DNA from: Amphiscolops sp. MND2022
Taxonomy: Eukaryota
Reading direction: 5' to 3'
DNA length: 64,000 bases
Assembly: GCA_964187785.1 (NCBI GenBank)
Contig: OZ076416.1
Location: 27,776,001 to 27,840,000 of the forward strand
Each line of letters begins with the position of its first letter. Positions within the stretch are counted from its first letter, which is position 1. A model generated the notes under the pieces. The model had not been told where the DNA came from. It saw nothing but the letters and a program-made list of their open reading frames with translations, and searched no databases. Positions 16,157 to 53,870 of this stretch are shown here, piece by piece. The position numbers were made by a program, and so were the translations under genes.

Positions 16157-16298
16157 GAGGCAACTCAATGAGGCGACATGATTATGAAAGTCTAAATTGC
16201 AGTTACTATTAATCGCAGGTCTTGTTTACTGCTAGGATATTGCAGTGGAAAATTGTGCCGTCGGGCAAAACAATTTGTTATTTGTTAAGAGTTTGCAG

Positions 16299-20346: not shown

Positions 20347-23300
20347 AAGAAGACAAAACGAGAATTGTTTTAGAGGTTGCGCTTCGTAATCTTAAGGTAG
20401 CTTTGTAATCATAATATGCGCGGTATCTATTATACATTTCAGTCAATTTACTTTTTGCTGCAGAAAATTTCTGTAGCATGGCATCCTGCAATGCAAGCAC
20501 ATATTCTGTAGTCGGTTGCGCACGTGCAAGCGAACTGTTATTAAACCTGAGATCTAAAGGTTTCAGAGGCTCTCGACAATGAAACAAGGTGGTCGGGCTC
20601 GTTCCGATTGCAAAATGATAAGTATTATGAATGAAAGCTGCAAGTTGTACATACTTGTACCAGTCGTTCCACTGCTGAGTGGTGTTTAGTTTCAAGATTC
20701 GTTTAAGGGCGCTATGCGAGCGCTCCACAACACCGACAGTTTGCGGGTGCTTTAGACTGGCATGTTCTAATTTTATTTCCAAAAGTTTAGTCAATTCGTG
20801 CATCAATTCACTCACAAAAGTAGTACCCAAGTCGGATAAAATTGTTTTTGGAAGATAACTATGACGGAAAAATATCGACGCAAGTTCTCGTGCAACGGTT
20901 TCTGACCTCCCATTAGTAAGTGGGACTGCAAAAAGATATTTTGTAAAAACATCAATACCCGTAAGAACATAACGGTAGAGCAGAGACTGTAACGGACCGA
21001 CAAGGTCAATTTGTAACATTTCGCCCGGGTAAGATTTCAACAAGGAGACCGGTTGTAACGGAGTTTTCAGATTTTTGCTTGGTACACGTTTCAGTTGCAA
21101 ACATTGTAGACAGTTTTGGATAGTTGACGTTAAGTATTCTGTAAAATTCGGAAAATAAAAGCGTTTTCTAAATTCTTCAACCGTTTTATTGATTCCCATA
21201 TGGCCTGCTGTCGGCGAGTTATGCAAGCGGTAAATTACTTCGCGCCATAGGGATTTAGGGACACAGAACTGTTTGTGTTGCACTTTTCCTTGATCGTCAT
21301 AAAAAAGGCGATAAAGAACTTTGTCCTGAATGATTAGGCGTGGAAACTGTTTACGATATTTTCGCAAAGCTATCGGTAAATTTGGCGACATGTCCGGCGA
21401 GCCTCGGTCTTTCCATTGCATTACTTCACGAATGATCTCGTCTTGATTTTGTACTAGAGCGAGGTCTATTGGCTCTGACCGGTTGGGCAAATCATCAAGA
21501 ATGTCGCTGAATTCTTCTGACGAGACTAAGTTTATTTGATTTATTTGACAGAAAGAGTAAAAGCCAGTGATGTCAAGAGACGGGGTAGTCTGCGCTTCGG
21601 TTGTTTTCTGTAAAAACTGTTCGTAGAGACCAAATTCTTTCAATTGTGAAATTAGGCGTTCGTCAGCCTGATCGTCAACAGATTCCGGAAAAGGTGATCT
21701 ATCCGAAATATTTGATAAAGCGACATCAGGAGATTTCGCTTCGGTTGCTATTTCAATATCTTTAATAGGTATACGATCAGTTAATTTGAGAGACAGGGTT
21801 AGAGTAGGGTCTGTTTGCATTCGTGATAAAAAATCTGCGGCCGAATACGCTTCACCAGGAATATGAGCAAGGAGAATGTTGAAAGACAAAACTCTATCCA
21901 AACAGTTCCATAACGATGGATGAATACTTTTAGATTGGAAAAATTGCGTGAGACTACGGTTATCGGTTAAGACTAGCACAGGTTTAGTTGCGCCCCATAT
22001 AAAATGTGCAAAATGGTCTAAGGCGAAATAGAGAGCAAGAAATTCTTTATAGTAAACCGAAAATTTCAATTGCGTCGGACCAAACAACCGAGATCCAAAG
22101 GAGACCGGCGCGTATACTTTTTTCTCTTTTCCTTGTTGATCTAACAAGTAGTCCTCAATCATGAGGACAAAGCCTGTGCCATGGTAACTAGCGTCACAAA
22201 GGAGTACGTATTGGAGACCAGGTTTTGCCAATCGCAAAGTAGAGTTGGTAGCATTTCGTAAATCGGTTTTCAATAAATCTAGTGCTTCGCTATGTTCTTT
22301 AGTGGTTTTAAATTCTACATCTTTTCGCAAAAGTTTGTAAAATGGTAGCAATTTTTGGCCCAAGTTGGGCATGAACGAACGAAAAAATTGGACAAATCCA
22401 ATCAATCTTTTCACTTGTTTAACAGTTTCTGGCATTCTGATTTTTTCGAGAAATTTGTTTATTTTGTCAGCTTCTGGTGAGATTCCTTTAGGTGTTATGG
22501 TGCTTCCCAAATAATCAATCTTGGTCGTCCCAAATTCACATTTATGAGCAGACAATTTTAATCCTGATGCACGCAGGCAATCAAAAATTTTTGTTAAAGC
22601 AGGAGTCATCTCATCAAAATTGTTTACTCCCATGGCAATGTCGTCCATGAATTGAGTACAAACATTGGCAGCAAGACATTTATCTAAGTAGTGTTTAACG
22701 AACGAACTAAATCCGGTGACGGATTTGTTCAGGCCTTGGGCTAAACAATTATAAGCAAATGTACGCGAAGCGAAATTAAATGCCAGCAACTGTACCGAAA
22801 GGTCATCTGCCATTTGAACGCAATGGTATGCTTGCGAACAATCAAGTTTACAAAATAACTTCTTTCCCGCAAAATGGTTTGTCGCATCTGTCATATTTGA
22901 AATGAGGAAATTGCTATTTAAGTAATCATGGCGTAGGAGGTGATTGACTCTTCTGAGATCGATAAGTATGCGAAGCTTGCCATATGGTTTGCGATGTACA
23001 AATATCGGACTAGAATATTTGGAGTGTGACAACGTAGTTATGATGTTAAAATATTGTAATAACGCCAATTCAACTAAAATTTCATCACGCAAATGAATCG
23101 GTGCTGGTGGACCTTGAACGTATACCGGAAGTTGATGAGCAGGCGTTAATTTGATCTTCAATTCTGTGTTATACCCAACATCAAAGCGATGTTTTGCAAA
23201 CACGTCATGATATTCAACAAGAAAGTCCTCCAATTTTGATTTTTCATCAGCGCTCAAAACACATGTATCCCACGTAAATTTTTTCAAACATTCTTGTCTA

Positions 23301-24415
23301 TCGTGTGGATTGCTTTTTGGGTTTATTTTTTCACAACGTTGAAGTTGCAATATTTGGTCGTAAATTTCACGTTGCAACGGTGACAAATTTGAAAGATCTG
23401 TACATGTTTCGGGAGTCGGAAACCAAAGTTTTGAGTAATCTGGTGGCGGCCGACCATTGTCAGTGTCAAATTTCTGAAAGTGGATATCTTGAATGAGCTG
23501 ATTAAGTTCATTTTCAAAATCGTCGGGTCTTCTAATTTTTGCGAGTGCCAATAATTGTGGATCTATTTCAAGGAGATACTCAGCCTGTGACTCGCTCAAA
23601 ATTTCGAAATGTGCAATTTGTTTTTTGCTATTTAGCGTAATCTGGGAATCGGACAAATTGATCGCTGATATGTATATTTTATTGTCATTATCCATCTTGC
23701 TCAGAGACGAAGTTAATGCAACATTGGCTTTGTCCTCCAGATTCTTGTTTGGAATTACTAATCCTGTGCAATTGGCGAACTGGTCAGTATATTCATCCAA
23801 ATAGCATTCAAGGAGGACTTGTTGCTGCGGTCCAATATTGACTTTTTTGCTCAATAGGATAGGTATATTTTTCATTTTTTTCACAAATTGTCGTTTTTTT
23901 CCAGCGTCCGGTTTCATTTCATTGAGTTGAACCGTAAAGTCGGGCAGTTTCAGTAAGTTGTTTTTGGGGTCTATCGTGATATTCTGTTTTTTAAAGGAAG
24001 AGTTTCCCAAAATTACACTATTCATTTTTGGTAGCACGAGAAAACTGTCCGTAAAGGAATGAATTCCAATACAGAATGTGAGATTCACCTGATTGTCAAC
24101 TGACACTCGTTGTCCTGAAGCCATGCGGACAGACGTATAATTTGGAGTTTCATTTTTAATTAAGTCGGGATGACTCAAACGTAATTCGTCGTATAAATTT
24201 TGAGGCAATGCATTAGCGCAGGCGCCTGTATCAATGAGGGCTCTCCGACGAATGTTCGGAGAAAATTTCAATTTAACGTAGGAAAGATTTTCACCTTCAA
24301 GAGGCAAAACAGCGCATATATCTGGCTTTTTTAATTCTATGTTACATGTGTGTGGCTCATTGGACTGGTTTTCATGTAGAGAAATAGACGGTGGAATCTT
24401 GTGCTGCGTTTTTAG
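20306..24415 (-). CDS. pol: Pol polyprotein (aspartic protease, RT, RNase H, integrase)
   Basis: ALIDTGA (PR), LDCSQAY and QFMDD (RT), LCDASYHG/TDNRSL (RNase H), H..H..C..C, QIDLVGP, SDLG and ER..S (integrase). The frame is open from the frameshift site at 24415. Confidence 0.95.
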   Translation of the reverse strand, partial: LKTQHKIPPSISLHENQSNEPHTCNIELKKPDICAVLPLEGENLSYVKLKFSPNIRRRALIDTGACANALPQNLYDELRLSHPDLIKNETPNYTSVRMASGQRVSVDNQVNLTFCIGIHSFTDSFLVLPKMNSVILGNSSFKKQNITIDPKNNLLKLPDFTVQLNEMKPDAGKKRQFVKKMKNIPILLSKKVNIGPQQQVLLECYLDEYTDQFANCTGLVIPNKNLEDKANVALTSSLSKMDNDNKIYISAINLSDSQITLNSKKQIAHFEILSESQAEYLLEIDPQLLALAKIRRPDDFENELNQLIQDIHFQKFDTDNGRPPPDYSKLWFPTPETCTDLSNLSPLQREIYDQILQLQRCEKINPKSNPHDRQECLKKFTWDTCVLSADEKSKLEDFLVEYHDVFAKHRFDVGYNTELKIKLTPAHQLPVYVQGPPAPIHLRDEILVELALLQYFNIITTLSHSKYSSPIFVHRKPYGKLRILIDLRRVNHLLRHDYLNSNFLISNMTDATNHFAGKKLFCKLDCSQAYHCVQMADDLSVQLLAFNFASRTFAYNCLAQGLNKSVTGFSSFVKHYLDKCLAANVCTQFMDDIAMGVNNFDEMTPALTKIFDCLRASGLKLSAHKCEFGTTKIDYLGSTITPKGISPEADKINKFLEKIRMPETVKQVKRLIGFVQFFRSFMPNLGQKLLPFYKLLRKDVEFKTTKEHSEALDLLKTDLRNATNSTLRLAKPGLQYVLLCDASYHGTGFVLMIEDYLLDQQGKEKKVYAPVSFGSRLFGPTQLKFSVYYKEFLALYFALDHFAHFIWGATKPVLVLTDNRSLTQFFQSKSIHPSLWNCLDRVLSFNILLAHIPGEAYSAADFLSRMQTDPTLTLSLKLTDRIPIKDIEIATEAKSPDVALSNISDRSPFPESVDDQADERLISQLKEFGLYEQFLQKTTEAQTTPSLDITGFYSFCQINQINLVSSEEFSDILDDLPNRSEPIDLALVQNQDEIIREVMQWKDRGSPDMSPNLPIALRKYRKQFPRLIIQDKVLYRLFYDDQGKVQHKQFCVPKSLWREVIYRLHNSPTAGHMGINKTVEEFRKRFYFPNFTEYLTSTIQNCLQCLQLKRVPSKNLKTPLQPVSLLKSYPGEMLQIDLVGPLQSLLYRYVLTGIDVFTKYLFAVPLTNGRSETVARELASIFFRHSYLPKTILSDLGTTFVSELMHELTKLLEIKLEHASLKHPQTVGVVERSHSALKRILKLNTTQQWNDWYKYVQLAAFIHNTYHFAIGTSPTTLFHCREPLKPLDLRFNNSSLARAQPTTEYVLALQDAMLQKFSAAKSKLTEMYNRYRAYYDYKATLRLRSATSKTILVLSSFESKTNDAVRFFE

Positions 24416-25725
24416 TTTTTTTGATTTTGATTGAACGGCATTTGGGCTCCTCGTTGTGGCGGGTTACCTTGCGCAGTACAATCTTTTGCTAGATGATTCG
24501 GATATCCGCAATTATAGCAAGTATGTGTTGATTGTTGTGTATAAGGCATGTAATGCGGATCCGGAGTAAAAACTTCAAATGTAGTTTGCGATGAACCTTG
24601 ATTGGAATTCCCTTGTTGAAAGTTTTCCTGATTATGATTTGACCATTGTTGCTGACTATTTTGATTCTGATTAAAATTTGAATTTTGGTAATTTTGATTT
24701 GACTGATTGTAATTTCTGCCGTAATTGTTCTGCCAAGGTCGTCCTCGAACTTGGTAACCTCGACCTCGGTTTCCACGGTTATTGCCGCGATACCGACCAC
24801 GGTAATTTCCTCGATTTCCGCGATAGCCTTGGCCACGATAGTTTTGAGAGCCGCGTTGCGAATTGTTTTGGTTTTGCTGATTTTGTAACTGAGTGGTAAA
24901 ATTCGTAGCTTGCTCTTCTAGTTTTTTGGACATTTCGTTCAGTCGATTGTCCATAGTTTCTTGACTATGGCTCAATTTTGTAAGAGCTGTAACTAAAGTA
25001 TCAGATACTGAAGGGCGCACTTCACTGAAAGCATCCATAACCGAATCTTCAACTTCACAAAGGTTATAGATCGAAAGTTGTTTCCGAGCAAATATACACA
25101 AATCTTCAACCGTTGTATTTTCCGGTTGTTCCAAAAGTTTCGCTCGAAGCCAGCCCGGCATATTTTTTATAAATTGTCTCCGAATCTGAGTGGAGCGCGC
25201 TTGTTGCGCTGAATGAATTATTTCGGCTCTTCTGGCGGTTTCAGAATCAAATCGTGTTTGTTCGACTGCTGCGTCCGGCGCGGCACCGTCAATTGGTGCT
25301 ACTGCGGGTGGATTTGGGTCGGGATAAGCTTTAAGTGCTTTCGTTTGTAACGTGACTAAAAAATTCTCTGGATTGTCTGTTTTGGGATCGAATTTTAAGT
25401 TTTCCAATTTAAGAACATGCAATTCCTGAAGTCTTGGATTACAAAAGTGATCACGAAGAGCTGTCAAAGAGAGGTCTAAGTCCGCACGTGTTGCTACCGG
25501 TAGTGTTTGAAAATAGCGGAGCGCAGCGTCTCTAAGATGAAGTTGTAAAAAGTTGGCTTGCTGCGCTTGCGGTACCGCAGCTACTGCTAAGATACTTCGT
25601 AACAAATGTTCGAATTCACGAAAATTTTCCTTTTCTAAACCCGAGTAGGGTGTTAGCGAGAGTTGAGGTAAAGCAGCCATGATTTGAAAAGTTAAGTGTA
25701 AAATAAAGAGTGACGAATAAGACAA
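24412..25725 (-). CDS. gag: Gag with C-terminal CCHC zinc knuckle
   Basis: 437-aa ORF upstream of pol, with an RG/N/Q-rich nucleocapsid region and CYNCGYPNHLAKDC. Confidence 0.92.
   Translation of the reverse strand: MSYSSLFILHLTFQIMAALPQLSLTPYSGLEKENFREFEHLLRSILAVAAVPQAQQANFLQLHLRDAALRYFQTLPVATRADLDLSLTALRDHFCNPRLQELHVLKLENLKFDPKTDNPENFLVTLQTKALKAYPDPNPPAVAPIDGAAPDAAVEQTRFDSETARRAEIIHSAQQARSTQIRRQFIKNMPGWLRAKLLEQPENTTVEDLCIFARKQLSIYNLCEVEDSVMDAFSEVRPSVSDTLVTALTKLSHSQETMDNRLNEMSKKLEEQATNFTTQLQNQQNQNNSQRGSQNYRGQGYRGNRGNYRGRYRGNNRGNRGRGYQVRGRPWQNNYGRNYNQSNQNYQNSNFNQNQNSQQQWSNHNQENFQQGNSNQGSSQTTFEVFTPDPHYMPYTQQSTHTCYNCGYPNHLAKDCTAQGNPPQRGAQMPFNQNQKN
24415..24421 (-). promoter_or_regulatory. -1 ribosomal frameshift slippery site A_AAA_AAC (gag-pol)
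   Basis: Heptamer is in the correct phase immediately before the gag TAA. The -1 frame is stop-free and continuous with pol. Confidence 0.8.
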
Positions 25726-26373
25726 ACTAAGATTGTAGTGAAGAAAAAATTGAAAAATTGTCGATCAAAGTATGTAAAATGCAGTCGAACACTGATGTGT
25801 AGTTTGTACTTCGAAAACTGAACAACGAATATGATACTTTCAAGGCGAAACAAGAAAGATTTGAGATCAAATTTAAAAGGTTTTTGCAACAACTACAATT
25901 TGCAGTGAAAAAAGGAAATTTGCCTTTGGAAAAAAGTAAAAAGTTTGCAGAAATTCACAGTTGAGTTTCTGAAAGAGTAACAGCTGTGAGACACAGTTCA
26001 GTTGAAAATGAAAACAGTTGAAACACTCATGAAATTCGAAATTTACACTATATCACTTTACTGCTTCAGAATTGAATCAAACTCACCGACTGTATTCGTA
26101 CTGGCACTTTGAAGTCATCATGAAATTGAATACAGATATAGGAGCATCAAAATTCGCCCAAGTGGAGAAAGTCACCAAAACTCATCTTTGATTTCTGTAG
26201 TTTCCAGTTTCTGCCGTGCCGTGTTTGTTTCAGTTATTACAGCCTCGTGGATCTGGTGCTGGTCGTGGATGATGTGGCTGGAACACCGCGGGTGGTTGGT
26301 CGGGTGTCTCGTGTGAGCTTTTCAACACAAAAAGGAGAGTTCTTCTCTGTATTGCATAATGAGGATTGTTTTG

Positions 26374-26385
26374 CTCCTGTCACCA
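26374..26385 (-). promoter_or_regulatory. Primer-binding site TGGTGACAGGAG (tRNA-Leu-like)
   Basis: Begins on the last base of the 5' LTR. Differs at one base from the complement of the vertebrate tRNA-Leu(CAG) 3' end (TGGTGTCAGGAG). Confidence 0.7.
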
Positions 26386-26717
26386 ACTTATATCTCTACT
26401 TTTAAGATGAGTATTTATGGCTGGCGGCTGGATGCAGGAATGGAGAGCAGCCAAGTCTTCGGAACATGGATCACAATCCTCAGATTAGTTCTCAATCTTC
26501 TTATTTGAAAACACAACCATGCAATTCTCTAGTTATTGTCAGCACTGATGTTTTTGTATTAATAAGTGTTATTATAGTTATTTGTTTAAAGATGCTGATC
26601 AAATAGTTAAAAGGTTAAAGTTCTGTCATAGGTAAAATAGTTTTAAGGTCAAATATTTAAGAGTTCTTTCAATCAGTTCTTTTGTCCTCAACAACGGAAT
26701 GTTTCAGCTATGTTACA
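26385..26717 (-). repeat. 5' LTR (333 bp)
   Basis: Direct repeat of 12293-12625, followed by the TSD CGAC. Confidence 0.97.
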
Positions 26718-35296: not shown

Positions 35297-35489
35297 TTTT
35301 TAGTCGGCGCTTCATGAAGTGAAACGCGACTATACTAATGGCTTTTCAATCCAACTGACCCATTCTATTTTTTGATGTTTTGCGACAAAAATGTTGAAAA
35401 ATCCCAAAGGGTCCCCTTTTAGCGCGTGAGGGGCCCGCCAATTTGGTCAAACATTTTGGTTTTTCTGGTACTGTAAAAGAATACTTGAC
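35297..35489 (+). mobile_element. 5' part of a HINE-like copy split by the Polinton (3' part at about 47500-47551)
   Basis: TTTTTAGTCGGCGC start. The right flank of the Polinton continues ...GCTATTTTTGAGCCTTAGATATGGCG, as in intact copies. Confidence 0.7.
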
Positions 35490-35714
35490 AGTAGTATACG
35501 TTGGTAGGGGTATTCGCACACTTTCGTTTCTCCCTACAGTTTAACATGGAGTTTTTGCAATTTTCTGCAAAAGGTAACCATATAAGGTAACAATTCTCAG
35601 CTAGGGCCACCTCTAAGTTGTGCGGGAGCGGGTAGAATCATTTAGATTAACAATTTGAACTGTATTCGCAATCTGATGATGTCTTTTTACACTCTTAAAA
35701 CTTATAACTGAACA

Positions 35715-35803
35715 GGCAGTGTAGCTCTAGTGCTTAAACCCGCTGCAGCGGGCTCGATGGTACCGTGATCGAGCCGCACCCTAAGCACTAATCCTGCACT
35801 ACC
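35715..35803. other. Branched (Y/T-shaped) GC-rich hairpin inside the left end of the Polinton
   Basis: Stem TAGTGCTTA/TAAGCACTA encloses the palindrome CCCGCTGCAGCGGG and the hairpin GGCTCGAT/ATCGAGCC. Confidence 0.7.
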
Positions 35804-36108
35804 ATTTTGATGGAAATCAACAATAAAATTGACCCTGAAAATTAAACACGCAGAGGTTAAAATACCAGATTTATTTTGACACTTCGCCACGCTAATCAAT
35901 AAATTTTTCCAGTCAAATCAGTTGTGCGTACCAAAAATATCGTGAGAAAGTTGCAATCAAGCCGGTGATTAATCTTTTCCAATTCAGACGCTAATATGAC
36001 TTTTTGATTTTTTCCCACCAAAAAGATGACATATCACAAGTCGATTGAAAATAAAAACCGAGTCCAGAAGTTGCATTTCATTTCAACTGAAAACTTTGTC
36101 AGTACATC

Positions 36109-38053
36109 ATGACTTCCACTACAAAAGAATTTTCCACTGAACGTATGAGATACCTTCTATACGAGACAAACAAAGTCTTCACACAAAAAACCTGGGACTC
36201 TTCTGATCAAGACGACAGTGTGACAGAACCCATACCCAAAAAAGAATACAATCCATTGAGAAACACAACCCATTTGGTCGAAAGTCTCAAAAAATTCCTC
36301 GAATGGGTTATAGATTACTCCAACTTGGAATTTTGCGTGGCTCTGCATGCGAAGGAAGACGACGCAAACGAAATGGATATTTGCCAGAGTTATGGAAGAC
36401 TGCACTATCACGTGATACTCTATAGTGTGAAATTTCCCAAAACCATGGATAAAATTATCAAAAAGAACTTTACCACTGCCCTCGAGGAAACCATGAACTC
36501 GCAGAACAACTACAGAATTGAAATGTTCAGCACAAAGAGTTCATCTTTTCGAAGAGAATTTTTGAGAAACACAAAAACTTTGGTGACACATGGGCCATCT
36601 ATTCAACAGCACTTGAAGGGATTGAATCATACAAGCAGCCGCAATCACGTTGACTGTATCTGGGACAAATGTCAAAAAACTGGGCGGTATGAAGCAAGCC
36701 GCGACACAATCATCGATCGAACCCAAAAATTCTAGACAACGTTGAAGAGTTGGAAAAATCCGCCAGTCAGTTCAAACATGTGATACCCGATATCGTCAAC
36801 TTCCTCACCCAAAACAGCTATGCAGGGTGGCCACTTCAAAATTTCAAATTTGGGGGCAGATGCAAATCTATCTGAAATGTTACAAAATTAACGGAAATCA
36901 TGGTTAATAAATATCATTATGCCGTGGCATGTTGAAAGTACTTGAAAACAACAGGTTAGAGGAATGATATCTTCGCTCACCGCGCATAGTATTGCAATTA
37001 TCAGTCATAACGTAAGCAATCTGCTCGTAGTTAAGCTTAAACTCAGCAAGTACGGTACAGAAGGCATCAAAAACAGCACTGGAACCGACAAATTCGACAT
37101 CTGATAGCTTCTTTACGGAGTCATTCAAAAACTCATCAACCGAAAATTTTGCTTCCAATTCAATTGTTCTGAGATAAGAATTCTTTCTCAATTCCCCATC
37201 AAAGTGAACGATCCAGAATTCGAGGCGGCATTTCTTATGGTAGCTCGATTCATCCATATGAATACCCACACGGTCACAGGAAGTGATTTTATCGGTGACT
37301 TGGTCTCTTACAAATGGGGCTATCGCTCTCGTTATGATGTATCCCGTTTTCGTTTTCCCACAATTAATCGCAGCAAAGGAGCTATCTGGGAACATCACCT
37401 TGTAAAGTGACCGATTGCGACTAAAGCATTCGCTGGATCTAAAGCTTGCGTCATCCACGATGATCTTCAAGCAATGATAAATAGTTGCACGCAGCACGCC
37501 GGTCTCCTTACTGCAACTCGTATAAAGCGCCGCGGCAATGTTTGGAGTACGGCTCGAGGTTGATGGCATGTTCTTCTTGTGCATCGCCGATTGTTCATGT
37601 TGTTTCAATGCAAATAATCCTCGTGCAATTTTGACCACTGTATTGCAATATTTGCAGCGCACTGAATGGTCAAGTCCCGGAATGCGCAGTCCCCAAGCAA
37701 ACTTCTCGCTTAAGTTGTTCGTAAACTTGCAATCTCCACCCATCACTACCTGAAAACATTAAAAAATTAAGCGATACATTTATTTGGGGGTTAAAATTAT
37801 GCTGGGGGCAATTTGGGGGCATTTGGGGGTGCCCCCAAATTTGGGGGCAAAGTGGCCACCCTGCAGCTATGGATCCTTCACCAACTCCCAACACAGTTCG
37901 GTTTTAAAAGTATCACTCGACCTGACCGACGCTCAATGTTGCTGCCACGACTGCTGCTTTCCCGAAAAACAAACTCCGGAGAGCAGAAACTATCAATTCA
38001 TTGACGAAGGAACTGTCCTGTTTGAACAATCATTTGATGGTATATTCAGCTAG
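36109..38053 (+). pseudogene. HUH-motif (Rep-like) ORF of about 298 aa, broken by a 1-nt frameshift (A5 at 36725-36729) and the hAT insertion
   Basis: CVALHAKED...GRLHYHVILY motif. After removing 36823-37871 the frame runs on to a Cys-rich tail (CCCHDCC) and stops at 38053. Confidence 0.5.
36823..37863 (-). mobile_element. Internally deleted hAT transposon (1,041 bp) nested in the Polinton
   Basis: 14-bp TIR CAGGGTGGCCACTT, 8-bp TSD CAGCTATG (36815-36822 and 37864-37871), TTTGGGGGC subterminal repeats. ORF 36904-37746 has a BED-like finger (CKYC...H....H) and MDES/TDNC catalytic motifs and is 3'-truncated. Confidence 0.92.
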
Positions 38054-38071
38054 ATTTCAGTTGCTAAAAAT

Positions 38072-38506
38072 TTGCTTTCAATCATGTTGTTTCCTGAGTA
38101 TCTTGATATACAACAAGTAATAAAAAAGTTTGATGAACTAGTAATTATTTTCCCACAAAATAAGGTCAGCAAAAATGCTTTTCTCGCAGTGTGTCAGGTT
38201 ATTGACCCAACACGGGACCTGGCAGCAATAAATGTAGAATGTGAGTACGGAGGCTTGATAGGGCCAGGCAACAGTTTCCTACATCCTTTGCTTCAGAAAT
38301 TTAAACTTTTCCGTGTTCACGCGGCCTTTCATGATGCATTTGGTTTCATGAAAGAAAAGTATAATTTGGGATCAGGATATGTTTACACATTGGGTGAGGA
38401 ACCATCATTCAAAAACAGCTGCCTGTTGGGTCATTTCACCGGCTTGTTTCTTTGGATGTATCTAAAACTGACACAATCACAGATTTATTCCGAGTTGCCA
38501 TTTTGA
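38072..38506 (+). CDS. Parvovirus/adintovirus-type phospholipase A2-like protein
   Basis: YGGLIGPGN (Ca-loop-like) followed by HAAFHDAFG (catalytic HD). Confidence 0.7.
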   Translation: MLSIMLFPEYLDIQQVIKKFDELVIIFPQNKVSKNAFLAVCQVIDPTRDLAAINVECEYGGLIGPGNSFLHPLLQKFKLFRVHAAFHDAFGFMKEKYNLGSGYVYTLGEEPSFKNSCLLGHFTGLFLWMYLKLTQSQIYSELPF

Positions 38507-38522
38507 CTAGTAAGCATTCCAA

Positions 38523-38810
38523 ATGTCAGCTGCTAGCTCCAAGCTACCAAACACATCACTGCAGCTTTCATTGAATTCGAAAGTTTTCATACAATATAAT
38601 CATCAGAATCATTTTTGCATTTACCTCGAAAAGATTGATTCTGGTGTCTGTCCGCTAAACAATTACAGGTTGAGACACCTAGTTCCACTCACTTTGGAAG
38701 AACTTCTCCAACTATCGGAAGCATCGAAAATTCTTTGTTCAACCCTAGAATACAACTATAATCTTTCTAAAAAGCGAGAATACCCAGATGCCAAACCATC
38801 TCGCAAATGA
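38523..38810 (+). CDS. Polinton hypothetical protein (95 aa)
   Basis: ATG-initiated, co-oriented and tightly packed between recognisable Polinton genes. Confidence 0.45.
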   Translation: MSAASSKLPNTSLQLSLNSKVFIQYNHQNHFCIYLEKIDSGVCPLNNYRLRHLVPLTLEELLQLSEASKILCSTLEYNYNLSKKREYPDAKPSRK

Positions 38811-39099
38811 AAAAGCTAAGGATCAACCAGACACACCAATATCTGTTACTGGAGGCAGTCTGATTTTTGACAACGACGAAAACGAGAGACCTCCGTGGAA
38901 ACTTCAATGCTGTTGTATTAGAAAAGAATGTGAGCGATCGCTCCTAGTCTTATTACTGCATTATTTTATCGTCTTTTTGGTTGTGGCAGCAAGTATAGGG
39001 TTCTTATTCCTCAAGCAGAGCGAAAACAAGGGCAGCATAGGAGTGGTTGCCATCATATCAGCGTGCTTAGGCTATATAATTCCGTCACCGAGACAATGA
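38788..39099 (+). CDS. Small two-TM protein of the kind found upstream of Polinton ATPases
   Basis: CERSLLVLLLHYFIVFLVV...ISACLGYIIPSP. Its stop overlaps the ATPase ATG (ATGA at 39096-39099). Confidence 0.65.
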   Translation: MPNHLANEKAKDQPDTPISVTGGSLIFDNDENERPPWKLQCCCIRKECERSLLVLLLHYFIVFLVVAASIGFLFLKQSENKGSIGVVAIISACLGYIIPSPRQ

Positions 39100-39791
39100 A
39101 CAAAATAATCAGCACAGATCCCCACTGTTTTCTCATGGTAGTTGGACCCAGTGGCTCGGGAAAAACTTACTTAGTCTCGCAGCTTCTGAAACAGCATCAC
39201 CAAATTTTCAAACCGAACTTCCAACAATTTCTGTACTTTTATAATCATTTTCAACCCATTTATCAAGAACTGCAAGTGTTACTGGGACCAAAAACTTTTC
39301 ATCTTTGTCAAGGTGTTGACTGGTCTCTACTGGACAAGGCATCGGCGTCAAACCAACACACTCTCGTCATTTTCGACGATGTCTATCAAGAAGTAGCTGC
39401 CGCGAAAGAGTTTTTGAACCTCGTGATTTCCGGCCGACATCAGAAACTACATCTGCTGGTCCTGAAGCACAATTTGTACCAGCAGTCAACAAACTCCAAA
39501 ACGATTGATCTGAATGTTACACAATTGTTGTTGCTGAGGAACCCACGAGACACTAATCAAATTGACTACTTGGGACGACAACTTGGTTGCCGAGAACTTT
39601 TACTCAATTCGTATAAAAGAGCAACGCAAGATGAGTTTGGTCATTTGCTCATCGATCTGGATCCCCGGCTGAATGAAAACTTGCGTTTTTCTTCAAACAT
39701 AGTTTCTAAACCAGCCATTTATTACTGTAACACTTCAAACTCGACAGCAATAAACATTGATGATTCCTTCACAACATCTTTATACAATTGA
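39096..39791 (+). CDS. A32/FtsK-like genome packaging ATPase
   Basis: Walker A GPSGSGKT, Walker B VIFDD, and GRHQKLHLLVLKHNLY motif. Confidence 0.92.
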   Translation: MNKIISTDPHCFLMVVGPSGSGKTYLVSQLLKQHHQIFKPNFQQFLYFYNHFQPIYQELQVLLGPKTFHLCQGVDWSLLDKASASNQHTLVIFDDVYQEVAAAKEFLNLVISGRHQKLHLLVLKHNLYQQSTNSKTIDLNVTQLLLLRNPRDTNQIDYLGRQLGCRELLLNSYKRATQDEFGHLLIDLDPRLNENLRFSSNIVSKPAIYYCNTSNSTAINIDDSFTTSLYN

Positions 39792-40080
39792 GTTGTTCTC
39801 ATCTTTCAAACCAATACTAAAAAGACATTTCATCTTACATTGTAGTGACGATATAATAAAACTTTTCTGCAATTGCCTTTTCAACATCAAGGAAGGAGCG
39901 ATAGAGCTCAAAAATGTGAAACCTAATACTCTCAAGAAAAATAAACTGCTCATTCAACAGCTCTGTTCACCTAAGATCAGGTTGGCTGTGAAGAGAACTA
40001 CTGGCGTCCAAGCAAGGACAAAGTCTTTTACGCTTGCTAAAAACTTCAATATTAAGATATCTGAAACTACAGTGCTATGA
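39757..40080 (+). CDS. Conserved small basic Polinton ORF (C-terminal part probably frameshifted)
   Basis: LHCSDDIIKLFCNCLFNIKEGAIEL...LKKNK resembles the C-x-C..N..G ORF seen after the ATPase in Polintons. Confidence 0.5.
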   Translation: MMIPSQHLYTIELFSSFKPILKRHFILHCSDDIIKLFCNCLFNIKEGAIELKNVKPNTLKKNKLLIQQLCSPKIRLAVKRTTGVQARTKSFTLAKNFNIKISETTVL

Positions 40081-40733
40081 GCAAGCCAACAAAGCGGTTT
40101 GTACTTGTGCCAGCTGATGTGTACTTCAACCAAGGAGAGGAGAAGGCCATTAACGGCGGCTTAATTGCTCAACCATCAGTAGCAACATCTGAATCGAAAA
40201 GGGCCAAGTTTTCCGAACAAGACCTGAAAGAAGAACTTATCAAGGAAGAAACACATTGCGAATCACCTTTGGAGGTGACCACAAAAGCGAGTCAACTCGA
40301 TGTTCTAGATCGACTTGCGCCGTCGAATCGTAAAGAAGCAATCGATCAGAATAAATTGTGGAACATAAATAACAAAATACAAACAATCATTAGTAAATTG
40401 ATCGAGCTCGGCTTTAGCAGCAGCAAGTTGGAAAGATCACGAATTATATTACAATCATTTTTCAAAAATTCGCGACTGTCTCTTAACGAATTGCTGGAAA
40501 TACAACTGGACGGCAGTCCAACACAGGTAAACCTCCTAGCATTTCTGAGTGACCTTCAAGTTGCCAACAAAAAACTGGGTGAAGCATCACTGAATGTGCT
40601 GCGTATACTTAAAATCACAACTAAACACATCATAGCAAATGTCAAGGCAAAAGAGGTGGTGTCGTCAGCGGGACAAAACGATTCGACATCGAGTTCACTT
40701 TCTTCTTCGACCTTGTGGGTCGAGCGCTTCTGA
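40077..40733 (+). CDS. Polinton hypothetical protein (218 aa)
   Basis: ATG overlaps the previous stop. Starts KRFVLVP. Lies between the ATPase block and the integrase. Confidence 0.55.
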   Translation: MSKPTKRFVLVPADVYFNQGEEKAINGGLIAQPSVATSESKRAKFSEQDLKEELIKEETHCESPLEVTTKASQLDVLDRLAPSNRKEAIDQNKLWNINNKIQTIISKLIELGFSSSKLERSRIILQSFFKNSRLSLNELLEIQLDGSPTQVNLLAFLSDLQVANKKLGEASLNVLRILKITTKHIIANVKAKEVVSSAGQNDSTSSSLSSSTLWVERF

Positions 40734-41915
40734 TGACGGCCAATTAGCAGCAGAACTCATCAATCAACTCTTGATTCGAGCAGAAATTGAATTAAATCCC
40801 GGACCTCTCAAATGTAATTGCTGTAAAAAGCTTTTGGGCAAAGTACGAAAAAGGCACCAACTGTTTGGTGTCACGTTTGCGGATGGGTACACTTCAAGTG
40901 CAGTGGCTTAAACACACCATTGGATTATCAAAAGACTACCAATTTTCGGTGCCCGTGGTGTGCCACCAATACTAGATTCGCAAACGAAAGTTCAGACCCG
41001 GCACTTTTAACATTGCACAAACTCTACACTTCAACAAGCAGTCACGCCGCTTTCGGCTCGAGCGAGGTTTTGAGGAAGGCAGCAGCAACAAAAGGAATCA
41101 AGAGAAAACAAGTTGACAAATTCCTTTCACAGAGCGAAACGTACACCAAGTTCCGCGCTGGTATACACAAGTTCACCCGGCTTAAAGTGCAATCTTACCG
41201 AATCAATGAAATTTGGTCTGGTGACTTGGCAGATGTGCATCAATTAGCAAAAAACGACGGCAAGAAATTCCTCTTGGTTTTTGTGGATTGTTTGAGCCGA
41301 TTCCTCCGCGTGGAAGCAATTGAAACCAAGTCAGCGACGCAAACAAGGACTGCACTACAGCGTTTGATACGGAAGCAAAAACCAGAAAAGATTTGGGTGG
41401 ACAAAGGAAAAGAATTTAAGGGCGAATTTGCCAAGCTATGTGCAGAGAAAAACATTACAGTATATAGCACCCACAGTGAGATGAAATCATGTTTGGCCGA
41501 GCGCTACATTCGAACTCTCAAGTCAATTTTATTTAAATATTTGCATGAGAACAACACCAGTCGATACATTGATCAACTCCAAAACTTTGTTAACCTCATC
41601 AATTCTCGACCTAACAGGAATACAAAGATTGCTCCGAAAAAAGTGACAAAGAAAGATGTACCGTACCTCGTTTCGTTATCAGCCAATGCCAACCCTGTGA
41701 AAAAACCACGGTATAAGATTGGTGATACAGTAAGGATTCGATTGAAAATCCCCACTTTCAACAAGGGCTATAAAATTCAGTTTACAGAAGAAATATTTGA
41801 AATTGTAGCCAATCCGACACTGAACCCCCCGACGTACACAATAAAAGACAAGGACGGCCAAGTCATCGAAGGAAAATTCTACGAGGAAGAATTAGTTTTA
41901 TTTCGTTACAGTTGA
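40733..41915 (+). CDS. Retroviral-type (rve) Polinton integrase with a probable N-terminal 2A-like peptide and PHD finger
   Basis: WSGDLAD, VDCLSRF, WVDKGKEF and LAERYIRTLK (DDE core), then the GDTVRI...GY...FTEEIF...TY.I.D..G....GKFYEEEL tail. Upstream EIELNPGP and C4HC3-like residues join via one A in the run at 40825-40829. Confidence 0.88.
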
Positions 41916-41944
41916 GTAGGTAGCTAGATGACCTTGTGCCTGCA

Positions 41945-42787
41945 ATGGAACAAACTTTTACAATCAATTTAATTCCCAATGCTTCCATGCAAGTGTTTCC
42001 TGCAAACACTATGGCTTGATTCACAACATTATTACCCCATAGAATTGAACTAGCTGGAGACTGGGAAGTTGCCATTCTAGAGGCATCTTGGCCGGCCAAA
42101 GTTAAAAACATTACAAGCGCCGCATTAACGTTGAGTTGCTTCGACAAAAAGTCAGAGACAAACAAGACCGAAACATAATGGAACGATACCAGACAGCTAT
42201 TATCCAAACGTCGACATTCTGATGACTAAACTGATACAATCAGTGTATCAAAGAAACGACACAAACTTCCCAGTTAGTTGGAAAGTTGATCCAGTCAGCG
42301 GGAAAATTGAAGTTTTTTTCCACAGTCAAGAGTTGGAAGATCAATTTTGGCTCCTGTTCAAGTCAACCGATTTGTCAAACACACTCGGAATCACCGATAC
42401 GATTTGTTGCACAATTCAAAGCCAACTTGAAAAAGGTTACGCCGTGCAAGGCACTTACCCGGTCGATCTACAGGGTGGTCGGCACACAATGTTTTTATAC
42501 TGCGATTTGATTCAAAACGAAATCTTGGGTGACGCTCAAACAGCTCTTTTGAGGGCCATACCGTTGAACCAAAGAGATGCTGTTTCCAATGCAACATGCT
42601 ACAGAAACTTTCACAAATTGCAGTGGAAAAACCTACAAGGTCAAATTTTCAATCAATAACGATAAGACTGTGCGATGAAAGCGGCCAGCTGATGCCTTTC
42701 GTCAGTATTGGACGAACCAATCTCACGCTAGCTTTCCGTCGCCGCAGCGGCCACTCGTCTTCATTCAACTCAAATCAACAATTCTGA
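41945..42787 (+). pseudogene. Minor capsid (penton) protein with nonsense and frameshift lesions
   Basis: MEQTFTINLIPNASMQVFPANTMA*FTTLLPHRIELAGDWEVAILE..., FLYCDLIQNEILGD...LLRAIP, and ITIRLCDESGQLMPF. Confidence 0.8.
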
Positions 42788-42820
42788 ACAGTTGCTAACT
42801 AAAAGACCAGAACACAATCC

Positions 42821-43264
42821 ATGGATGCTTACTATGCTTCGCAGAGGACATTCCACGGACCAGCAAGGCAATTCGGTTCCTGTGCAGGTCTGGGAGCCTT
42901 TCAAGTTCGCGTGGGACGGACTGCCATGCCGCTTTTGAAAAAATACGTCGCCCCAATAGTCAAACAAGTAGGCAAAAATGTGCTGGAAGCCGCTCTACCC
43001 GAAGTGGCCAGTCTCATTTCAGGCAAAAAGAAGACGAAGAGGGCGATCAAGGATGGCGTCAAGCGGGTGATAGCAAAAACTATTGAGCCGAGTGCCGCGG
43101 CGTGCGGCACGGCGGTCGGCGGCGGCGCAGCCAGAAAACGAAAGCATGCTGAGTTGTTGAAAGCTCCATCAACAAAAACAATCATTTCGAACAAAAAGAC
43201 TCCCAAGAGAAGTCGGGCAGACATTTTGACCAAAGTGAGATTTGCCAATTCTTCCAACAGTTGA
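42821..43264 (+). CDS. Basic core-protein-like ORF (adenovirus pVII/pX-like)
   Basis: YYASQ...RQFG..GLG..R.AMPLLK..V...GK pattern, with a Lys/Arg-rich C-terminus. Confidence 0.6.
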   Translation: MDAYYASQRTFHGPARQFGSCAGLGAFQVRVGRTAMPLLKKYVAPIVKQVGKNVLEAALPEVASLISGKKKTKRAIKDGVKRVIAKTIEPSAAACGTAVGGGAARKRKHAELLKAPSTKTIISNKKTPKRSRADILTKVRFANSSNS

Positions 43265-44847
43265 AGGGAATGAGTGCCAGCACAACCAATTCAATACAAT
43301 TTCATAGCCGAGCAAGCGATGTAGCTCAACAAGTAACACACAGTGCACTAGACTTTTTTGAAAAGCCTCCAGTCTTGATCAATTACGAAGGGTCCCACGA
43401 CCAAGAAGTTTTTCCACAAGTGGGGTGTCGAGGACCACAACTGGATATTGTAGTTACCTCCGACAATAGAAACCTGGTTGATTTGAACAAAATAGTCTTG
43501 GACATCGACTGTGCCATCTATAAAGCCGATGGGAAAACGCCTGCCGAAGAAGTTCTTCCTGTATGTTTTGCAAACAACACGCTACATAGTTTGTTCTCTC
43601 ACGCCGAGGTTTATATTGACGGCATATTGGTTTCATCGAGCAACAATACATACCACCACGCAGCATTCATCGAGACGGAAATGACGACCGACCTTGATGC
43701 GAAAGCAACTTGGGCTCGATGTCAAGGCTACGAGTACCAGGCAGACAAAACATCAGAGGAAGAGTTAGCCAAGTGGAAAAATGAAAAATACGAGCAGGCA
43801 AAAATCTCGAAAAACAAATTACGACTGGTTGGAGCGCCCCATATTGACTTTTTCGAATGTGAAAAAATTCTTTTGCCAGGAATAACACTTCACATACGCC
43901 TCCACAGATCAAGCAACGGCTTTGTACTAACATCTCTGGACAGCAGCAGCAGTGATGAAAAATTTGTTGCAATTATTGAAAGGGCATCACTGTTCGTCAC
44001 CAAAATGGTCGTGAAGGACTCTGTGCGAATGTCCATAGAAAAGGCATTGGTAAGTGGTCCTGCCCATTATCCCTACATTGAGACATTAAAAAGTTTCATC
44101 ATTCAAGCAGGACAAAACAGTTTCGTGAAAGAAAATATTTTTGGAACGGAACCAGTCAGACGTCTCACTTTGTGCATGATAACAAACGAACAATTCCGAG
44201 GAACTAGGAACGCTGATGCCTTCCATTGTAAACCGTTTGGCTTGCAGAGACTAGAAATTACTCGTGGAAATGGGGTCCCAGTTCCAGGTAGTCCGCTGGA
44301 CATGAGGAATGGAAAAATGCGAGCCTTTTACAACACAATATGTTCACTTGGTTTTGCTGCGGGTAAAGGAGGAAACGGAATCGCTCGCAAAAATTTTGAC
44401 GTTTTGGTAAAAAAAAGCAAAAATCATTTCGTTTTGGTATTCGATCTGACCTCTAGCAGAGAAGCCTCCAAAAGTCTCACCTTATTTCCTGAACTAACAG
44501 GAGGTAGTCTCACGTTGAAGTTAACTTTTGAGCAACAATTGGAACAAACAATTGAGCTCTTCCTCATTGCGGAAAAATTTAGTCAAATTTTCATTACATC
44601 CGAAAGAACAGTTCTCAAAAACACGGTATTGAAGCTGTATCAAGTCACACTAATGGACACTTGGGCTCTACAAAAACTGGCACTCAAATGTAATCATTTG
44701 ATAGAAACATTTTGGGGAGTTTGGAGTGCAGACAACTTTCCTCTGATGAACGAGGACGACGCATCACCGTCATTTCAAATTGTCAACACTGAAGCTAGCA
44801 ACAAACCCGGAAAGCACTGGGTTCTACTATGCAAAAGAACTAAATAA
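43261..44847 (+). CDS. Major capsid protein (double jelly-roll type), read in frame into the protease N-terminus
   Basis: LDFFEKPP..., NNTLHSLFSHAEVYIDG..VS.SNNTY...FIET motifs typical of Polinton capsid proteins. Confidence 0.85.
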   Translation: MKGMSASTTNSIQFHSRASDVAQQVTHSALDFFEKPPVLINYEGSHDQEVFPQVGCRGPQLDIVVTSDNRNLVDLNKIVLDIDCAIYKADGKTPAEEVLPVCFANNTLHSLFSHAEVYIDGILVSSSNNTYHHAAFIETEMTTDLDAKATWARCQGYEYQADKTSEEELAKWKNEKYEQAKISKNKLRLVGAPHIDFFECEKILLPGITLHIRLHRSSNGFVLTSLDSSSSDEKFVAIIERASLFVTKMVVKDSVRMSIEKALVSGPAHYPYIETLKSFIIQAGQNSFVKENIFGTEPVRRLTLCMITNEQFRGTRNADAFHCKPFGLQRLEITRGNGVPVPGSPLDMRNGKMRAFYNTICSLGFAAGKGGNGIARKNFDVLVKKSKNHFVLVFDLTSSREASKSLTLFPELTGGSLTLKLTFEQQLEQTIELFLIAEKFSQIFITSERTVLKNTVLKLYQVTLMDTWALQKLALKCNHLIETFWGVWSADNFPLMNEDDASPSFQIVNTEASNKPGKHWVLLCKRTK

Positions 44848-45109
44848 GGTATAGGTGCTATCATATTTTGGGATAGCTTGGGAAAAAGGCCGAGAAAATA
44901 CAAGGTATTGTTCGAACGATTGAATGAAATTTATAAAAAAAATTGTTGTATTCAACCATCCTCTTCAGAGCAACTATTCAAATTGCTGTGGTTTGTATTG
45001 TATACTTGCTGCACATTACTTACGATTATCGGAAAATAACAAAGCAGCTGCACAAATGCTCCCAAAGAAGATGGTTGATGAGTGTTCATTAAGTCGTTTT
45101 ATAAATTAA
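44653..45109 (+). pseudogene. Adenain-like cysteine protease
   Basis: IVNTE...PGKHWV (His), FWDSLG (Asp), LQSNYSNCCGLYC (Gln/Cys). TAA at 44845-44847 and a frameshift in the A8 run at 44935-44942. Confidence 0.85.
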
Positions 45110-46197
45110 GAGTTGATGTTAGAGAAGTAGGTTATTCAAATGCATGTCTATCATTCAGTAGCTAAACTTGAAAAGATTCTCAGTTGTGTTAATTATATAA
45201 CAAGAAGAATACTTGAGTTCACCAAAGTTGAACGAAAGGCGAGTTATCAAGGTTCATCGACAAATAAAGACAACTGAGAAGAAAATTTGAAGTCCAACTT
45301 TAATTGGCATTGCATAATTAATTACTTCTAGGCAGACTCGTAAATGACCAGATTCTCAGTTATGTTTATTCGATAGAGAAAAGATCGTTTAGGTTCATTA
45401 TTGAAGTTGAGCTGATGTCAGCTTATCAGGGTTCATTAGCTTATTTGGACAATGTGTGAAACAGTTTTGACATTATCGAAATGAACTCGGAAAAACTTCG
45501 GGCCCTTTGAAAAACAAAGGTGTCGAAAAATTTGAAAAGTGACAAAAGATGAGATAAAAGTCGGCTGGAAAGGAGTATAAAAGGTGCACACTTGGAATAT
45601 ATCTTCATTGAAGTTCCTGTGGAAAAACGCTCAATATTGGTTTTTAAAACTCTGCATCGTTGAAATTTCCAAATCATCAACCATGAACAACTTCTTTTCA
45701 ATATTGATTCATGAATCAAGAGAGGTCACGGTCCGGGAAACACGAAAACCCAGACAAGAGAGCAGCATCGAAATAAAGGTCCCCAAGAAGCGAGTGGACG
45801 AATTTGGCGAAGCTGGCGGGTGATCGGCACCGAGGCTTCCTTCCCTGAGAAGGCCTTCACGAAACTGATGAGAATCAATTGGACAATAATTTTCTTCGGG
45901 ATGCTGGGCAACGGTGAATTGCCTCAGGAGATGCTGGTACCGACCCCCGCCGACGAGGACGCAGGGCTCCGTATGGAATCCCGTTTCACGTCAACAATTT
46001 TCTCTGAAGTCGGTAAGCATGAACATTATAAATAGGATTACTGTTGGTCAAAGAGAGAGGGACTCAGGCAAATTAGTCTTGAATCGAGCTTGAAAGATCA
46101 CTAACATATTCAGTGCAACCCTTTTCTTTGGCGCTTGTGCCTCACAAGACGATGAATTTATCAAGATGCGTGATGACTTAGGTTGTATTGAAGTGAT

Positions 46198-46683
46198 TTG
46201 TTTCAATTCGATAACACTGTTCTCATTTCATGTTTAGGAGAGAAGACAGCATTCAGGGCGTCAGTGAACATATACAACTTGAACATACATACAAAGAAGA
46301 GTGTGTATGTTACAATGAAGGCCTTCCGTTGGGAGCCCGAATGGTCACAATTCAATCGAGTTGGGCAAGTGATTACGCTGCATCATTGTGAGATGATGCG
46401 GCTGATTACGGAATATAACACCTATCTGGATAGAATTGTCGCTCCTTCTGGTAAGCCAACGGAAGAGAGCACTTGCGAGGAGGAAGACCGACCCTTGTCA
46501 CTACTGAAAGCTGGGACGTCAAAGCGCACTGAAAAGACAGGATCTTCCTCCTCACAAGTGCAAAAGAAAATACCAAAAAAAACGGCCCTTGCGGAAGGGA
46601 CTTCAACAACGCCCGCAGTTGATGCCCCGAAGGAGACCACTAGCGAAGAAATCACTATCGAAGATAGTGAGGATGAAAACTAA
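46198..46683 (+). CDS. Polinton hypothetical protein with acidic/low-complexity tail
   Basis: 161-codon open frame in the element orientation. No ATG start is evident. Confidence 0.4.
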   Translation: MFQFDNTVLISCLGEKTAFRASVNIYNLNIHTKKSVYVTMKAFRWEPEWSQFNRVGQVITLHHCEMMRLITEYNTYLDRIVAPSGKPTEESTCEEEDRPLSLLKAGTSKRTEKTGSSSSQVQKKIPKKTALAEGTSTTPAVDAPKETTSEEITIEDSEDEN

Positions 46684-47884
46684 TTGTATAGTTACAAGTG
46701 ATTCGTATTATTTTATTCAGTACCTGATTGTATATTGTTATATTACCTCAAAGTTTTTCTGCTAGTTAGCAAATGAGACATCAAGTTCGAAAAATACATC
46801 AACTATTTCGAGTAAAAACAGTGAAAAAAAAGTCATCATGAGAGCGGGTTTTCAAAGTGACTGCGATCAGAATCGATCCGCGTTTAAAATACATTTCAAA
46901 TTTTCAAATTGATCTAAAGATGAAAATTGAAGTACGGAAATGTGCGAAAGTAGAAATTCATTTTTATTCCAAAATTGATTTGAGCAAAACCCCTTGCTCC
47001 AATGCTTACTAAACGCGCCGTGCCGGCGCGCTGTTCCTTGCGGCCCAATATTACGACTTACATGAATTCCATCGTGGTCTACACCACTAGGCCACAGGCG
47101 CACTGATTTAGAATGAAATTGAAAGACTGTAATTAGCTGCGAGAACAATTAATAAAAGCGATGAAAGCAGTATTAGGAATGAGAAACATCAAATAGAATT
47201 AAATTGAGAATACAGCTATTCGGTGTGGTGGCCGTTCAAACTTCGATGACATTGAATAACTCTACGGTTGAATTGAAACACCATTGCAATTCAATCATTC
47301 CAAAGCACATAGCATTGAATAAAATCAAACATTGGAAAGAATGATTAGCAGTAACACTTACATCGATAGTTCGAGTTTGTATAAATCGAATAAGTTCAAT
47401 GTTAAACAGAAATTTGCGAAAAATGCAGAATTTTGTGGAAAAACAATAGGGAGAAACGAAAGTGTGCGAATACCCCTACCAACGTATACTACTCTTGACA
47501 CTTTGAAATCCTTTTGCTATTTTTGAGCCTTAGATATGGCGTCGACTTGTTACCCATCTGGTAAGAGCTGTCAAATTATTAAAGTTCAAAAACTCCTGAA
47601 ACTACTCAATTGTGGCAAAAAGGAAGAAAGCTTACAAAACGCCAAGGCGTGTTAATTCTTTGCATAAACATTTGACGAAAGTATCAGAAGCGAGCGAAAG
47701 TCTCAGATTTTGATCTGAAGTACAAATGCAATTTTTGTTTCGAAATCGAATGAAAACTGTTTTTTCACCCAGCCTGTCGTACTGTATCTTGAAACACACA
47801 TGTCTCAAGAAAAAATGTCAAGAGCTTCCTTTGTCTTGACTGACTAAAAACTCTATCTTTAAGGATTAAAGCCACCAGCTAGTC

Positions 47885-51000: not shown

Positions 51001-52941
51001 ATTCAGAATCATGCTTCTTATTATTTATCTGTTTGTTGGTACAAATGAGTACTTCAAACTCGACAAATGAAAAATGACGAAGAATGAAGATCGACAATTT
51101 TTTCGCGCGTAGAACCAATTTTGTAATCAATTGTTTCCGACCCGTCAATCTCCAGGTGGCAAAAAAGCAGAAATTATCAACAGATATCTCGGATATCAGC
51201 AAAAATTAGGCATTTCTACCATTAAGCAAAACGAAATCGAAGACCCTGAAGAAAAACAATAACCCAATATATTCATAATAGTATTTTTGAGATCTTTGAT
51301 TCTGTTTTGTTTGAGTTCATCATTGAAACAAAACAAAAAAATCCAAAATCATCGAAGTGCAAGCTACAAATACGTTTCATCGAATAAGACAGAAACTGGG
51401 TTACAAAAATGGCATTTCGAGCCATTGCAAATATTTTGCTTTCATGATTTCTTCAAAAACAAAAATTCTTATGCGCGTCATAAGCGTTTTATAAATGTAA
51501 AGCATGATAACCCTGATTCCATAAGAGCAGACAGGGAAGATAAGGTAAGAATGGTAAGAAAACATAGACCAAAAAGGTAGACTAGACACCTACTGATTTT
51601 GCCGCTGTTCGTTGTGATGTTGAGCTGTTGCTAACGCTGCTATCATTTAGAAGCAGCTTTTAGAATTTCCCAGTATGTTCTCTCACTGATGCCACATGAC
51701 AGCAAATATTAAGCACCAACTAAATTGCTGAAAAAGTTTCAGACTAATCAGCAGTTTCATCAAGAGTCTCACGCCCCGCCCCTAGTAATGTCAGAGCGCT
51801 AAAATTGGTGCCCCGACTCAAACAAAGACGTTACTTTTGTTGTAGTCATTTTATAGTCAAACTGAGAGATATAATTTTGAAACCAAGTAAAGTTCTTTAA
51901 ATTTCACACTTTCCTAGCGTTATTGTACAGCTAGCCGGTGAAAGCCCGCTATTGAATAAACGAATTGATTTCTTTGACTTTTATACCTGGCAAATACCTT
52001 GTTTAAGCTTAACAAAGAGAAGTGAACTCTTTTCTATTTTCCGCAACGACCAAATCTTTGAACAGACTTTTTGAAAAACTTCAAATTGACGATGTTAATT
52101 ATGAAATCTTTTAAAATTTTTCGCAAGCTAGACAAGTATAAAAATTCGAAGAGGTAGGTCCTTTATACCAGATAACGTACCCAGCATCGAGTACGAGATA
52201 CTCGGTTACGAATGTACTGCGTATACTATTCTACAAGTAATTATTAGATTACAAAAAAGATGTCACTCAGAAGCACCTTTCTTTTTTGGAATATGCCCCT
52301 GAGGGGAAATTAATGGTCCGATACGAACTGGCGACGGTTCATGAACTCTACTTGTAGGAGCTTTTCAAATTCATCGTAGACTATTTGCTCGGCCTTATGC
52401 CACAACTTTTTCAGAGGCTATGACACAGGAAACGAGCAGCTAGTGTGTGTGGTTCACGGCTTAGATATGTACTAATGCTTGTGGGACACAACTGCGTTTT
52501 TTTAAACAAAAAACAATTTGAGGATTGTTTAAATGATTTTAAATGTTTTCGTATTTATGTTTTTTGTTGTGCTAGAAACTTTTACAATAAGGAAGACCTC
52601 TTTCAAGTGGCCTTTCTCAGAAATCGGGTACTTTGATGTTTCGAAATAAGGAAAGAAGTTTTCGAAAATTGGCAATGTGAATTCAACAAAATTATCTCAC
52701 AAAAGTGTCCCTCAGTATAGTTATAACCAAATACTCTGCTTCAACTTTGAGCGGGGTGGCGACTTGGACAGTTTACGGCTTATTATGTCGTTAACAAATA
52801 CGGAGATTTACACAAAGAAAAGCGTGATTTTCTCAAGATGCTCGCGTTATTTGTTTCTTATTGACAAAAAGAAAAGCGATCAATTATTTACCAAATCAAG
52901 CCTAATTGTTGTGATAAACTTATTAAATAGTTTCAGAGACG

Positions 52942-53811: not shown

Positions 53812-53870
53812 CAATTACGTCGTAAATGTTTAAGAACCGGTTCCTCGAAGAAACATGGAACAGAAACTAA

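Follow-up and report, generated by a model that had tools for sequence, protein, structure and literature searches.

Gene content of the locus

The window, by which we mean the whole 64,000-nucleotide stretch of DNA that was analysed, contains an element spanning positions 35490–47493, whose terminal inverted repeats (TIRs) begin with AGTAGT and which is bordered by the target site duplication (TSD) CTTGAC, at 35484–35489 and again at 47494–47499. The left TIR (35490–35542, plus strand) and the right TIR (47441–47493, minus strand) match perfectly over 47 bp and at 96% over 53 bp. Reading along the plus strand, the HUH-fold gene described below is followed by an ORF at 38054–38506 with an IGPG...HAxFHDA signature, which we take to be a PLA2 motif (no Pfam match), a packaging ATPase at 38934–39791 (Pox_A32, E 1.6e-6, above the cut-off), a retroviral-type integrase at 40827–41915 (rve, E 2e-12), a probable minor capsid gene at 41924–42784, in three pieces in this copy, a probable major capsid gene at 43153–44631, and an adenain-type protease at 44635–45106, in two pieces, whose sister copy matches Peptidase_C5 under the cut-off (E 0.0017). 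Neither capsid gene has a database match, Pfam included, and both identities are assumed from position. The AGT-starting TIRs, 6-bp TSD, rve integrase, A32-like ATPase and cysteine protease are those of a Polinton/Maverick. Such TIRs, TSD, integrase, ATPase and protease, together with pPolB and a PLA2-like gene, are also described for alpha-class adintoviruses/animal Polintons (PMC8502044), and the PLA2-like ORF fits the PLA2X class of the same study; the gene set suggests an animal host. The text of that study that was searched names no HUH gene for alpha-class adintoviruses; the HUH-fold gene may correspond to an 'Adintoc' class, among those that it leaves without annotation.

In the window copy the HUH-fold gene stands in three pieces: its frame breaks near codon 206, and a 1,041-bp element is nested in it. 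The 5′ piece (36109–36735, plus strand; ATG at 36109, stop at 36735; 208 aa) contains the entire HUH domain, namely a strand at residues 13–20, H80, C92, H99-Y-H101, a tyrosine-less helix at 144–151 and G162 (codons for H80, H99 and H101 at 36346, 36403 and 36409). As the initial annotation had it, the string ALHAKED-x11-GRLHYHVILY lies in this first ORF after the left TIR, which is also the sole match to H-x-x-[DE]-x(8-20)-H-U-H among the 62 window frames of at least 100 aa (12,823 residues). The middle piece (36726–36822, plus strand) is in another frame and is interrupted by the nested element. The 3′ piece (37865–38053, plus strand) carries a second metal motif, H245 plus C260-x-C262-x-x-C265; the CCCHDCC tail reported earlier does exist, but on this separate piece, past the frame break and the insertion. 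Unbroken natural copies encode 297 aa, against a length of about 298 aa first proposed, and a whole 303-codon frame with both motifs was present at 15 of the 20 loci taken from the genome. The 297-aa protein of one natural copy (P0001) was the query or subject of all later tests. The absence of a downstream YxxK/YxxH motif and of an SF3 helicase was likewise borne out: the window protein has no Tyr at residues 136–193, while the natural protein ends at 297 aa without a P-loop family match and with no Pfam family above the cut-off, so that no SF3 helicase is fused to it. The search for homologous proteins covered lengths of 163–520 aa.

The nested element (36823–37863, minus strand; TIR CAGGGTGGCCACTT) is flanked by the 8-bp TSD CAGCTATG at 36815–36822 and 37864–37871, and we take it to be hAT-like from this 8-bp duplication and its short CAG-starting TIR. 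It holds a transposase remnant (36904–37758) with no Pfam match, and its 8-bp target sequence is present also at window positions 12613 and 26705.

Predicted fold of the first-gene product

An HUH fold for the product of the first gene is supported by two structural models, a feature search and a weak profile match. The predicted structure comprises a five-stranded Rep-type sheet with a motif I strand, an HUH strand and a helix at the place of motif III, so that the HUH/ferredoxin-like fold on which the initial annotation had made its reading depend is present in both models. A language-model feature search (Atlas feature matches) gave further support, and hhalign returned a weak, in-register profile match at 13–15%; the Pfam profile of pMV158-type Rep_OBD (PF01719) gave no match above the cut-off. 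The protein could instead be a ferredoxin-like zinc protein that does not descend from HUH proteins and whose HxH strand came to resemble motif II by convergence. This we regard as very improbable, since the two models, at 16% identity, both place HUH proteins at the top of the fold ranking, 17 of the 18 best matches in one fold search are HUH proteins, and the strand order and histidine positions of the models agree with theirs.

For one model, densoviral and IHHNV NS2 proteins appeared at ranks 5 and 26 of the BFVD search (E 6.4e-4 and 4.2e-3), hinting that NS2 might also carry a Rep-like fold; one literature search returned nothing on such a fold in NS2.

Metal residues and the missing tyrosine

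Conservation was assessed in an alignment of the 25 most diverse family members (A6) and in a larger one with 43–46 rows per position (A4). H80, C92, H99, H101, G162 and G238 are invariant in A6 (n = 25), H245 is kept in 23 of 25 members and C260, C262 and C265 in 24 of 24; in A4, H80, H99 and H101 are found in 41, 43 and 44 of 44–45 rows. The metal histidines remain unchanged across relatives at 16–24% identity, and the His pair, whose loss in homologues would have spoken against the initial reading, is conserved in 25 of 25 A6 members. In relatives, H, S and Q all occur as the middle residue of the HUH motif. Invariant Cys92 sits in the loop that leads from H80 to the HxH strand, close to the site where plasmid Reps keep an Asp. 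From these patterns, His80, His99, His101 and Cys92 likely form one closed zinc site, and His245 with Cys260, Cys262 and Cys265 probably a second.

Motif III of HUH proteins is YxxK (PMC6668415, PMC11253617). Its tyrosine could fall at residue 146 (FLKTE against YLTHE, alignment A7) or at 149–151 (ends of the structural alignments), and a conserved Tyr was found at neither slot: position 146 has one in 0 of 25 A6 members and 1 of 46 rows, positions 148–152 in 0 of 25 and 0 of 46. The domain had been proposed to be either active or inactivated; because the motif-III helix has no conserved Tyr, the second option is favoured and the first is not.

The kept histidines bear on another reading, a tyrosine-free metal-dependent nuclease in which the His triad would hold a catalytic metal, Cys92 would be a removable cap or ligand and water the nucleophile; such an enzyme would cleave the element's DNA in single-stranded form by hydrolysis, for instance to release a copy from the chromosome. 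We consider it unlikely. It gains from the retention of the metal histidines at 16–24% identity, given that known retired HUH domains lost theirs, and from E150, present in 38 of 43 A4 rows, which can be set beside a Glu that binds the metal in the structure of a geminivirus Rep, four residues beyond the Tyr (10.1101/2020.09.01.278671). However, E150 is not retained in more distant clades, three His plus Cys would presumably fill a tetrahedral site, and the element is already equipped with an integrase and with an endonuclease VII insert in its pPolB. A more specific version, on which we would place slightly less weight, is a new HUH branch that exchanged covalent Tyr chemistry for a Cys-gated metal site and became a hydrolytic end-processing nuclease, trimming or freeing a single-stranded copy for pPolB and encoded by the first gene in all elements of the clade. 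If true, this nuclease might account for the missing step that leads from an integrated Polinton to a replicating virus.

The polymerase in the element family

The element was first described as lacking pPolB, which holds for the window copy, where tblastn found no remnant of the gene in the window, and fails for its family (family 1). On either side of the nested transposon, three sister copies can be aligned with the window element, and the two measured in full (15.5 kb) have 4,500 and 4,503 extra bases at window position 45108/45109; the window copy is thus devoid of pPolB because of a deletion of 4,500–4,503 bp relative to these two. The extra segment at this junction holds the pPolB gene of the sister copies, in opposite orientation, as a 1,277-aa ORF with DVTSLY, KLLSNACFGK and YKDTDS motifs that matches DNA_pol_B_2 (E 6.6e-5). 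In the family-1 polymerase (L024:4344–8174) there are also C2H2 zinc fingers at the N-terminus, along with an endonuclease VII insert. A pPolB probe of the genome gave at least 42 matches (40 of 85 candidates scored), and pPolB lies no more than 20 kb downstream of 28 of the 32 near-full matches of the HUH-fold gene, corresponding to 24 distinct pPolB loci; the four near-full matches without a nearby pPolB include the window copy.

The initial annotation had pointed to a chimaera between a Polinton and a single-stranded DNA replicon; on this reading an active or origin-binding Rep would replace pPolB and give a rolling-circle Polinton. The pPolB-less window copy is in keeping with it, as is one locus with four head-to-tail 2.19-kb left-end segments that include the gene. 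Against it, pPolB was removed by simple deletion and persists near most copies of the gene, the catalytic Tyr is absent, and the tandem unit (element positions 482–2668) excludes the hairpin. Gene and polymerase occur together in the family-1 sisters and in six of six elements of five other lineages, so the chimaera is extremely improbable in general and, given the deletion, the coexistence with pPolB and the lack of a catalytic Tyr, refuted for family 1; the apparent replacement of pPolB by Rep is an artefact that stems from a single decayed copy. Nor does the element resemble a Mriyavirus-type rolling-circle system, with no polymerase, an active HUH protein and a helicase gene, as pPolB is present and the Tyr absent.

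The imperfect hairpin at 35715–35803 (plus strand) folds moderately well (z −2.6). Its matches are limited to family-1 copies, with 0 of 8 tested loci of other lineages, and on this sequence evidence it is therefore not a clade-wide origin.

Spread of the gene and selection

A genome search with the HUH-fold gene found 82 matches. Of these, 32 are close to full length with ≥93% identity, and in 25 of the 32 a frame of 303 or 326 codons runs without a stop. Paralogues in other families of the same genome share 22–27% identity, and one divergent query returned 138 genome matches. Five other lineages, represented by six elements, were examined for gene order: an AGTAGT-type start lies about 600 bp upstream of the HUH-like gene in 6/6, and the order HUH-like, PLA2-like, ATPase, integrase, capsid-like genes, protease and opposite-strand pPolB recurs in 6/6. 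The HUH-like gene is the fixed first gene of one Polinton clade with at least six lineages in this genome. Between-lineage dN/dS values of 0.08–0.16, obtained where dS was estimable (synonymous sites being saturated in the remaining pairs), show purifying selection on the gene at the sequence level; within lineages, the values were 0.20, 0.56 and 1.10 for three pairs of nearly identical copies, which differ at few sites. Outside the genome, searches retrieved 20, 33 and 15 proteins, and 125 reached E≤0.001 when a profile was used, with relatives extending to clades at 16–20% identity, none informatively named.

This position also suits a retired HUH domain that would serve as an early transcription regulator or host-protein binder, and not as a replication factor: in each of the six lineages the gene comes first, some 600 bp in from the left end, and its product has two probable zinc sites. 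The known retired uses of the fold are, however, in origin binding, and we doubt the regulatory reading about as much as the nuclease.

Many near-identical copies occur across at least six Polinton lineages of the genome, and the elements have therefore spread recently. Tandem left-end segments were also seen, one of 2.19 kb in four head-to-tail copies at G000:C7:65.44–65.45 Mb (L030, L031), with the HUH-like and PLA2-like genes inside the unit (element positions 482–2668) and the hairpin outside it, and others of 1.5 kb at C4:35.00 Mb (L036).

Proposed role and comparison with known systems

To our knowledge, how replication of integrated Polintons starts is not established. A standard gene of at least six lineages that have their own polymerase is likely to be a repurposed DNA-binding helper and not a polymerase replacement, and a Rep fold with likely zinc binding and no conserved Tyr most likely belongs to a helper that does not cut. 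We thus propose, with about an even chance of being right, that the Tyr-less HUH-fold product is a non-cutting DNA-binding helper of protein-primed replication. The protein would bind zinc through three histidines and the invariant cysteine and, lacking tyrosine chemistry, would not start rolling-circle replication. Its sheet surface would still contact DNA, at the element ends or on displaced single strands, and the bound protein might recruit or assist pPolB. By analogy, we infer that this shift parallels the enzyme-to-binder switch of polyomavirus and papillomavirus origin-binding domains, retired HUH domains that bind origins (PMC6668415).

With Rep-class HUH endonucleases (AAV Rep, parvoviral NS1, circovirus/nanovirus Rep, pMV158 RepB) the Polinton protein shares a predicted five-stranded sheet that includes the HxH strand, an LHxxD-type His upstream of it and a predicted helix at the motif-III place; unlike them, it has no conserved Tyr/YxxK and no helicase, and it adds an invariant Cys before HxH and a C-terminal H-CxCxxC region. 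In SV40 large T and papillomavirus E1 the origin-binding domain has none of the three motifs and is joined to an SF3 helicase (PMC6668415), whereas the Polinton protein is stand-alone and keeps its metal histidines. Published HUH genes of Mriyaviruses and of some Polinton-like viruses are described as initiators that are active or presumed to be so, and Mriyaviruses and the Zora-group PLV are, like the present family, mid-size eukaryotic dsDNA viruses with an HUH gene and a packaging ATPase (PMC11253617; 10.64898/2026.06.19.733378). Mriyaviruses, however, are described as having no DNA polymerase and as keeping motif III, with an HUH protein predicted to be active (PMC11253617), whereas the Polinton family has pPolB and lost motif III. 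Bidnaviridae also reflect gene exchange between parvoviruses and Polintons, in the reverse direction, with a virus of parvoviral descent acquiring pPolB and losing the HUH domain (PMC4061559); PLA2X is a further known case of such exchange (PMC8502044). In the openly accessible literature passages searched, we came across no HUH-fold gene reported from animal Polintons that encode pPolB, and no HUH site capped by a cysteine.

The analysis assigns a predicted fold and testable residues to a conserved Polinton gene hitherto without annotation, and makes its product a concrete candidate for the start of Polinton replication that can be assayed in isolation. It also points to a further route for a rolling-circle Rep domain into a dsDNA virus, beside a protein-primed polymerase and with its Tyr lost, along which the Rep metal site was retained and apparently closed by a cysteine.

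Other elements in the window

An LTR retrotransposon with identical 300-bp terminal repeats occupies 12292–26683 and includes gag (24412–25764), pol with a dUTPase (20306–24463), a weak Macro-like ORF (18907–19368, E 0.0096) and a 543-aa ORF (13293–14924). An L1-like ORF1/ORF2 element lies at 52927–56734 and a 720-aa ORF at 60993–63155 on the minus strand. A dispersed AT-rich repeat family, of about ten copies with a common core of 50–75 bp, extends over 9890–63182.
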